Below, piece after piece: positions 22,105 to 23,593 of a stretch of 64,000 bases of DNA. A model generated the notes under the pieces. The model was not told the DNA's origin. It worked only from the letters and a program-made list of their open reading frames with translations, and did not search any database. Each line of letters begins with the position of its first letter. Within the stretch, counting starts at the first letter, position 1. The DNA comes from Octopus vulgaris (Eukaryota): NCBI GenBank assembly GCA_951406725.2, contig OX597817.1, positions 26,784,001 to 26,848,000 of the forward strand, given 5' to 3'. A program made the position numbers and the translations under genes.

Positions 22105-23562
22105 TATTCCTTTCTTTTATTCTGTTACTTGTTTCAGTCATTTGACTGCAGCCATGCTGGAGCACCATCTTTAGTCAAACAAATCGTCCTCAGGACCTAA
22201 TCTTTGTAAGCCTGGCACTTATTCTATTGGTTTCTTTTGCTGAACTGCTACGTAAATGTAAACACACCAACATTGGTGTCAAACGATGATGGGGGGACAA
22301 ACACAGACACACACACATATATATATATATATCTTTCGTTCAGCTTAACAGCCCTTAACGTTCGTATTACTGTTGTTCTTCTTGTCCTGTCATTTACTGT
22401 TTTTATTTTTATTTGTATTTTTACTGTCTTGTATTGTTTTTACTGTCCTGTTTTTGTTACCACTTTTACCCCTCCACAAAAAATCTCAAGTTATTTGCTG
22501 GAAGGACCGTTTCATCGATGTCATGTCTCGCCTTTACCTTCGAAACGCAGAGTAGACGAAATGGAGGCGGCTGAAGAAGGGAAATTTTCCTTGTGTCGTA
22601 TGTCTTGTACCCTGATTTTTCGTTGTTTAAAAAAAATGTCCGTTTCCATGGTTCTGTTTTTATGTTTTCGTATCTCATCGTGTTCGACGATTTTTTGGTG
22701 TCCTGTACCTATATATGCATGTATATATACATGTAGATGTAGGTACGTACATATATGTATGTATATATGCATATGTTTAATTTATTATTTTGTTATTATA
22801 TGACGAAACGCCACGCATCCTCTTCCAAGTAAGTTTTATCTTAATAATTATGACGCGCACTCTTAACCTTACTGTCTCTATATTTCTAACCTTACTGTCC
22901 CCCTCTCGCTCATTCTTCATTCTTTCTGGTTTTCTCTACCATTCTCTCCCTTTCACCGTTCCTTTTCTCTTACTCTTCCTCCTCCTCCTTCTCGTCGCTG
23001 ACATGTGACCAGAGTCCTGTCTTTCTGACCACATCCTTCAACAAATGTAGACGGCATCCTATTCCTTTCTTATGCCGTTGTTCTCACGCGTTCAAAATAT
23101 CTCTTTCGTTCGGCTTAACAGCCCTTAACGTTCGTATTACTATTGTTCTACTTGTCCTGTCGTTTACTGTTTTTATTTTTATTTGTATTTTTACTGTCTT
23201 GTATTGTTTTTACTGTCCTGTTTTTGTTACCACTTTTACCCCTCCGCAAAAAATCTCAAATTATTTGGGGGTAGGACCGTTTCATCGATGTCGTGTCTCG
23301 CCTTTACCTTCGGAACGCGGAGTAGACGAAACGGAGGCGGCTGTAGAAGGGGAATTTTCCTTCTGTCGTATGTCTTGTACCCTGTTTTTTCGTTGTTTAA
23401 AAAAAATATCCGTTTCCATGGTTCTGTTTTTATGTTTTCGTTTCTCATTGTGTTTGACGTTTTTTGGTGTCCTGTACCTATATATGTATGTATATATACA
23501 TATAGATGTAGGTACGTACATATATGTATGTATATATGCATATGTTTTATTTATTATTTTGT

Positions 23563-23593
<31 letters not shown>

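Follow-up and report, generated by a model that had tools for sequence, protein, structure and literature searches.

The permuted hammerheads described by Eckert et al. (2023, PMC10085705) are the ribozymes closest to the motif reported here. The order NUH, GAAA, CUGAnGA corresponds to their type SGC, which was validated in vitro, and the excerpted text of that paper reports no SGC or CSG example in the genomes of known organisms. Among mobile elements, the closest are Naiads, which target (TA)n and were reported to be without canonical hammerheads (Craig et al. 2021, PMC8557442). In the excerpts of that study, those Naiads are marked in which GAAA stands 35-50 nt before or after CUGAnGA, and a partial tandem arrangement, a tail of 30-40 bp and inverted adjacent copies form part of the Naiad/Penelope-like anatomy. 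Canonical hammerheads of Penelope-like elements (PLEs) lie in pseudo-LTRs, are described as type I with a tiny or palindromic helix III, and have been proposed to act as dimers (Cervera and de la Pena 2014, PMC4209133, in excerpt). Non-LTR retrozymes are defined, in the available part of their description, as runs of two or more complete consecutive units, every one with a type I hammerhead (bioRxiv 10.64898/2026.07.22.740005).

In the 64,000-nucleotide stretch of Octopus vulgaris DNA that was analysed (the window), an insert at 22332..23565 of the plus strand interrupts the (CA)n(TA)n tract of one SINE. Both flanks are halves of this single SINE and are collinear with a SINE copy at about 20560-20960: the 5' part (22115..22331, plus strand), which ends in the (CA)n(TA)n target site, matches 20567-20787 (repeat families D2/D10), and the 3' part (23566..23764, plus strand) matches 20772-20957 (families D7 and D6). 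The insert comprises repeat 1 (22332..22796), which is pseudo-LTR-like and likely a 5'-truncated copy, a 305-nt unique middle, and repeat 2 (23102..23565), for a total of 1.6 units. The repeats are identical in 440 of 465 columns of a pairwise alignment, with a spacing of 770/769, in agreement with the earlier note on this DNA, which had described direct repeats of 770-bp period inside the (TA)n of a SINE. The first part of the middle (22797..22841) is a tail, likely of Penelope type, delimited by the sequence and by the loose ends of family contigs (X1, X15 and X16). The remainder (22842..23101), delimited by contig depth bins and opposite-strand joints, consists of a pyrimidine-rich tract followed or flanked by sequence with sparse family coverage, and had no protein match. 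Frame 22992-23480, compared with longer proteins, matched 0 of 609 candidates in the protein search, which is weak evidence.

Elsewhere in the window there is a U6 snRNA copy at 34949-35054 (Rfam RF00026, 92.9 bits), probably a retrocopy, and arrays of a single type of 62-bp unit at 7491-7704, 32569-33155 and 38486-38701. Frames 7971-8360 (minus) and 17817-18371 (plus) resemble LINE reverse-transcriptase tail and endonuclease fragments.

Repeat 1 carries a predicted rewired hammerhead at 22469..22582 (plus strand), delineated from pair tables and family variants. Its three core words lie where the earlier note had placed them: the GUC triplet (22525..22527), with a cut predicted after 22527 by analogy with the hammerhead core, the GAAA block (22542..22545), with C11.1 just before it, and the CUGAAGA block (22571..22577), whose A9 continues into helix IV and not into stem II. 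The stem II proposed previously (ccttc with agggg) is weak, as it offers 1-2 Watson-Crick pairs and two G-U pairs, whereas the upstream GAAGG (22501-05) forms five of five Watson-Crick pairs with CCTTC (22537-41); the AGGGG 3' of CUGAAGA is part of an extra helix. The pair table further comprises helix IV (22469-73/22578-82), hairpin V (22474-80/22494-500), the I-helix (22507-16/22555-64), stem III (22521-26/22545-50), stem I (22528-33/22565-70) and an internal loop between the I-helix and stem III. The helix that had been read as an extension of stem III does exist, with 9 of 10 pairs formed in each copy, but it joins stems I and II and corresponds to the 'I' helix of Eckert et al. The resulting order is stem II 5' strand, I-helix, cleavage block, GAAA, I-helix, and stem I strand with CUGAnGA, and two additional helices (IV and V) are inserted between A9 and G10.1.

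The core of copy 1 is intact, and CUGAnGA, GAAA and NUH are present both in this copy and in the family majority. Stems I, II and III, with the G10.1-C11.1 and A15.1-U16.1 pairs, are also present, stem III requiring the family letters at 22523 and 22549; private mismatches of copy 1 fall in stems III, IV and V. A descriptor of the corrected layout, composed post hoc with copy 1 and the site at 14.5 kb in view, matched only these two places within the 64-kb window and had no match in 100 of 100 shuffles. The folding energy of both copies is no better than that of shuffles (z from -0.2 to +1.0), and copy 1 is predicted to misfold, the scaffold reaching -6.5 kcal/mol against a minimum of -26.4 kcal/mol. 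Classical hammerhead types I-III do not apply, as the circular block order is absent, and no complete motif emerged when a single repeat was read on the minus strand or as a classical type I/III hammerhead.

Copy 2 (23239..23352, plus strand), identified from pair tables, folding and family contigs, retains the scaffold with a broken core. Its core reads GGAA and CTGTAGA, the mutated words that had been noticed before, with two private lesions (23313 and 23344), one in each core half; stem II has one private lesion as well (23272). The scaffold is predicted to fold, with mean pair probabilities of 0.88 for helix IV, 0.72 for the I-helix and 0.75 for stem III, and the core itself fails at two places.

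To assess the family, we sampled public contigs from four organisms at a threshold of at least 80% identity, with depths expressed as sums over contigs and not as copy numbers. The family proved abundant in each of the four, the segment 22332-23101 recovering 1659 to 2850 contigs per run. In family contigs on 22790-23400, position 23313 is A in 4284 of 4747 (X5), 1020 of 1056, 99 of 99 and 65 of 65 of the summed depth, and position 23344 is A in 19299 of 19376, 4930 of 4930, 428 of 428 and 110 of 140. The family majority thus restores both lesions of copy 2 to GAAA and CUGAAGA. Since both lesions are private and the majority core is intact, the outcome that the earlier note had named as fatal to its proposal, a family consensus resembling copy 2, did not occur.

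Among the variants listed for 22469-22582, 13 of 16 fall in stems. Six of these convert a mismatch into a Watson-Crick pair, four exchange G-U and Watson-Crick pairs, two form one compensatory pair (22508/22563) and one (22515) breaks a pair. Pairing is thus kept or restored by 12 of the 13 listed stem variants, with agreement among the four organisms, a count that is not independent of the model because the variants were already known when helices IV and V were placed. In copy 2, two further pairs are repaired (23268 and 23272), and 23277/23334 forms another compensatory pair. The compensatory letters were read from separate variant counts and not as linked in one molecule, and several family variants fall at CpG.

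The family contigs also outline the anatomy of other copies. Beyond 22841, many continue into (TATC)n(TA)n or into different flanking sequence, and joints between opposite strands occur at 22840-42/23013-15 (X3, X15 and X16), the middle segment being inverted against 23013-15 in other copies. Summed contig depth is several-fold higher from the start of the stem I/CUGAnGA strand (22566-22720) than in 22488-22565, which suggests subfamilies with more diverged upstream hairpins. The tail contains an ATG at 22800, nine codons and a donor-like GTAAGT at 22829 (within 22800-22834), and no variant is listed for 22800-22853 despite high depth; this could be a possible first exon of a helper. No spliced joint from this GTAAGT was found in the family contigs, which is not evidence either way. 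In three runs guessed to be RNA, the family contigs show no pile of ends and no intron-skipping joint, a result uninformative in either direction on expression, cutting and circles, and none of the contigs listed in these runs spans the cut site with 31 letters on each side.

A second family, with unrelated stems and the same split hammerhead layout, is present on the minus strand at 14481..14590, where pair tables and folding indicate an intact core. Stem II (14561-56/14530-25), the I-helix (14554-48/14517-11) and a CUGAUGA block (14504-498) are found there, so the earlier note was right that the same block order recurs at 14.5 kb with different stem sequences. The folding z-score is about -2.2, and the loop and stem I closely resemble those of Naiad_Plae, from an acanthocephalan. 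A pattern like the 14.5-kb site and Naiad_Plae had 0 matches in metagenome contigs. A coding reading of this site was dropped, as it has short frames only.

We conclude from the sequence and its pairing that the layout is a non-circular hammerhead permutation, a relative of types SGC and CSG, opened at A9/G10.1 by two extra helices. Like SGC (HRIMA-1) and CSG as presented in the excerpts of PMC10085705, the element has the S-G-C order of core words, all core nucleotides, and a short linker between the strands of stems I and II with a helix binding their other sides. It differs from them in that block C, assumed there to be uninterruptible, is split at A9/G10.1, in the upstream position of the stem II 5' strand and of one strand of the I-helix, in the two extra helices, and in its location in animal genomic DNA, within a retroelement. 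The blocks do follow the order S, G, C, but block C is interrupted and the I-helix is not closed by a 3' tail, the downstream alternative being weak. A strict scan for the literal SGC layout, with no extra base permitted, missed both copies. Rfam returned no hammerhead family in its one gathering match, nor in 22 matches down to an E-value of 10 (22400-23450), which is what one would expect of an order (NUH, GAAA, CUGAnGA) that circular permutation does not produce.

The same layout occurs in published Naiads. In the supplement of PMC8557442, of which excerpts around search words were parsed, we recognised it by eye near the 3' end of 10 of 54 Naiad consensus records. The full layout in these records is a helix IV strand, hairpin V, a stem II 5' strand starting with G, the outer helix, a stem III strand with NUH and a stem I strand, followed by a short linker, the stem II 3' strand ending in C, GAAA, stem III, the outer helix, stem I, CUGAnGA and helix IV. 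The records are Bfor, Amil, Aacu (with mismatches), Anas, Plae, Obim and Ovul, named by the next header, and one each from Clytia, Morbakka and Darwinula, named by file order; their hosts are a ctenophore, cnidarians, an acanthocephalan, an ostracod and octopus. One further record fits imperfectly and was left out of the count. Some of the ten are labelled 'HHR_half_core' in the supplement. Eight other records of the 54, mostly from nematodes, carry an intact type CSG by eye (Nbra-1, -2 and -3 and Hpol and, by file order, two Pristionchus, Hcon and one more). The resulting 18 of 54 is a lower bound, since only excerpts were parsed. The layout of the CSG records matches CSG-1 and CSG-2 of Eckert et al.; because the nematode Naiad hammerheads resemble these two examples from metagenomes, the latter may derive from elements of this kind. 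A literature search, mostly outside subscription papers and bioRxiv supplements, retrieved no report of permuted Naiad hammerheads or of an A9/G10.1 junction, and the excerpts of PMC3088659, PMC10162972 and PMC13725137 contain no helix at A9/G10.1.

We regard the element as a likely non-coding derivative of a Naiad-type retroelement. It shares with Naiads, as described in the excerpts of PMC8557442, the partial tandem with pseudo-LTR-like repeats, the tail (the family end at 22841 lies 45 nt beyond the repeat), inverted copies (joints near 22840/23015), the (TA)n target and the rewired motif, recognised by eye in 10 of 54 records. It differs from them in having no GIY-YIG or RT coding sequence, with no ORF for an N-terminal GIY-YIG or for an RT with CxC and DKA motifs, and in having stems unlike those of the published octopus Naiads. 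Five short motifs of the window, compared with the Naiad consensus records in the excerpted supplement, identified no record matching the element's own sequence, although a match split by a line break may have been missed. Neither the protein search nor pattern scans of metagenome contigs (0 matches for the element) and prokaryote genomes (0) turned up an autonomous partner. The name 'Naiad-type' rests on shared layout and anatomy, as neither a sequence-matching record nor a partner was found. With the canonical PLE hammerheads (PMC4209133, in excerpt), the element has in common the pseudo-LTR location, the proposed dimeric action and tolerance at the A9/G10.1 step, but its stem III is long and its wiring is non-circular. 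The earlier suggestion of a permuted hammerhead within a Penelope-like partial tandem is thus supported, as a predicted motif.

The geometry of the motif bears on how it could cut. The open end of the I-helix is tied to the open end of stem III on both strands through a 4x4 loop, of which the family majority (GAAG/AGUA) resembles a loop E motif. In two Naiad records of the excerpted supplement, one strand runs between the I-helix and stem III with no linker. In the crystal structure of Eckert et al. (PMC10085705, in excerpt), these two helix ends are far apart. With about 20 pairs between the ends, and the loop and arms pointing apart, the core most likely forms between two copies, either within a tandem transcript or in trans, as this model of the geometry predicts; it is the corrected geometry alone that favours the earlier idea that the copies supply strands to each other. 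The RNA would first fold as a dumbbell. One end would be the loop on stem III, containing the cut site, the stem I strand, the stem II strand and GAA; the other would be an internal loop with the partner strands and CUGAnGA, and a rod of about 20 pairs would separate the two. The outer helix would be the I-helix of Eckert et al., extending stem I distally. A second copy, in the other pseudo-LTR or in another transcript, would capture with its arms the loop of the first, which would then be cut after GUC, so that one pair of copies gives one cut. Cutting would happen only when two pseudo-LTRs meet, and may trim tandem or read-through precursors for the reverse transcriptase of a helper.

At this locus, both combinations of copy 1 and copy 2 include one core lesion. 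The locus is thus probably dead, and the release and circularisation of a 770-nt monomer, as the earlier note envisaged, is unlikely here. Our main reading, to which we assign a probability of roughly 0.65, is that the insert is a non-autonomous, probably dead Naiad-type PLE derivative in the (TA)n of a SINE, in which the predicted rewired hammerhead of each repeat would likely cut only as a two-copy assembly.

The alternative that survives best, which we nevertheless consider unlikely, is that the same rewired hammerhead folds and cuts within one copy, with the rod kinking at the internal loop or partly unzipping, possibly with the help of a protein. SGC and CSG ribozymes did cleave when transcribed from templates with one copy, slowly in the case of CSG-1, which has a 2-nt link, and whether they acted as monomers is not addressed in the excerpted text (PMC10085705). 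The Poseidon hammerhead is described as protein-assisted (PMC11167929, in excerpt), and in some of the excerpted Naiad records one of the two linker strands is interrupted by a long insertion. In the element, however, both strands tie the I-helix to stem III, and several Naiad CSG records in the excerpts combine I-helices of 10-16 bp and stems III of 7-11 bp with joints of 0-2 nt, which would be hard to close in one copy.

Considerably less probable is a plain type-SGC hammerhead, with a stem II formed by the G-run after CUGAAGA and one extra A, in a retrozyme releasing a circularising 770-nt monomer. The block order and the repeat-borne motif agree with it, but the G-run stem has two G-U pairs against the five Watson-Crick pairs of the upstream strand, and in the excerpted Naiad records the loop can pair with the upstream strand only. 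The exact 770 unit also looks minor, because summed contig depth over 23000-23100 is lower by a factor of about a hundred than over the tail or the repeat. The element does resemble non-LTR retrozymes, in the available part of their description (bioRxiv 10.64898/2026.07.22.740005), in its non-coding nature, its repeat-borne hammerhead, a proposed PLE origin and a unit length within their range. It is no non-LTR retrozyme, given its 1.6 units, a hammerhead that is not type I and a copy 2 broken in both core halves. Nor is it an LTR retrozyme, which has a type III hammerhead in its LTRs and a 4-bp target duplication: the order within the repeat is not type III, and the microsatellite target masks any duplication. 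The retrozyme-like unit first proposed accordingly falls outside both definitions.

Slightly less probable still is that a former hammerhead persists as a conserved RNA structure, a signal for protein binding or the start of reverse transcription, in which cutting has been lost: Poseidon hammerhead mutants left insertion in vitro unaffected and no RNA-seq ends were found at the Poseidon cut site (PMC11167929, in excerpt), and no pile of contig ends is seen at the element, contigs being unable to display RNA ends, but the core words, G10.1-C11.1 and the NUH triplet are kept across phyla while the stems covary.

Beyond this locus, we judge the odds to be about even that Naiads across animal phyla carry non-circular hammerheads, of intact type CSG and of a new A9/G10.1 four-way-junction form, which would be kissing dumbbells with a core formable only between two copies. 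Such a ribozyme would in effect count pseudo-LTRs, with tandem or paired transcripts as its sole substrates. If this is true, the wiring would be an addition to the six block orders that had been considered to cover every permutation of the hammerhead, and Naiads would be the first home of non-circular hammerheads in the genomes of known organisms. It would also overturn the statement that Naiads are devoid of hammerheads, and supply the ribozyme reported missing. With thousands of genomic copies and covarying stems, both the geometric puzzle and the role of the ribozyme in Penelope-like retrotransposition would become directly testable.
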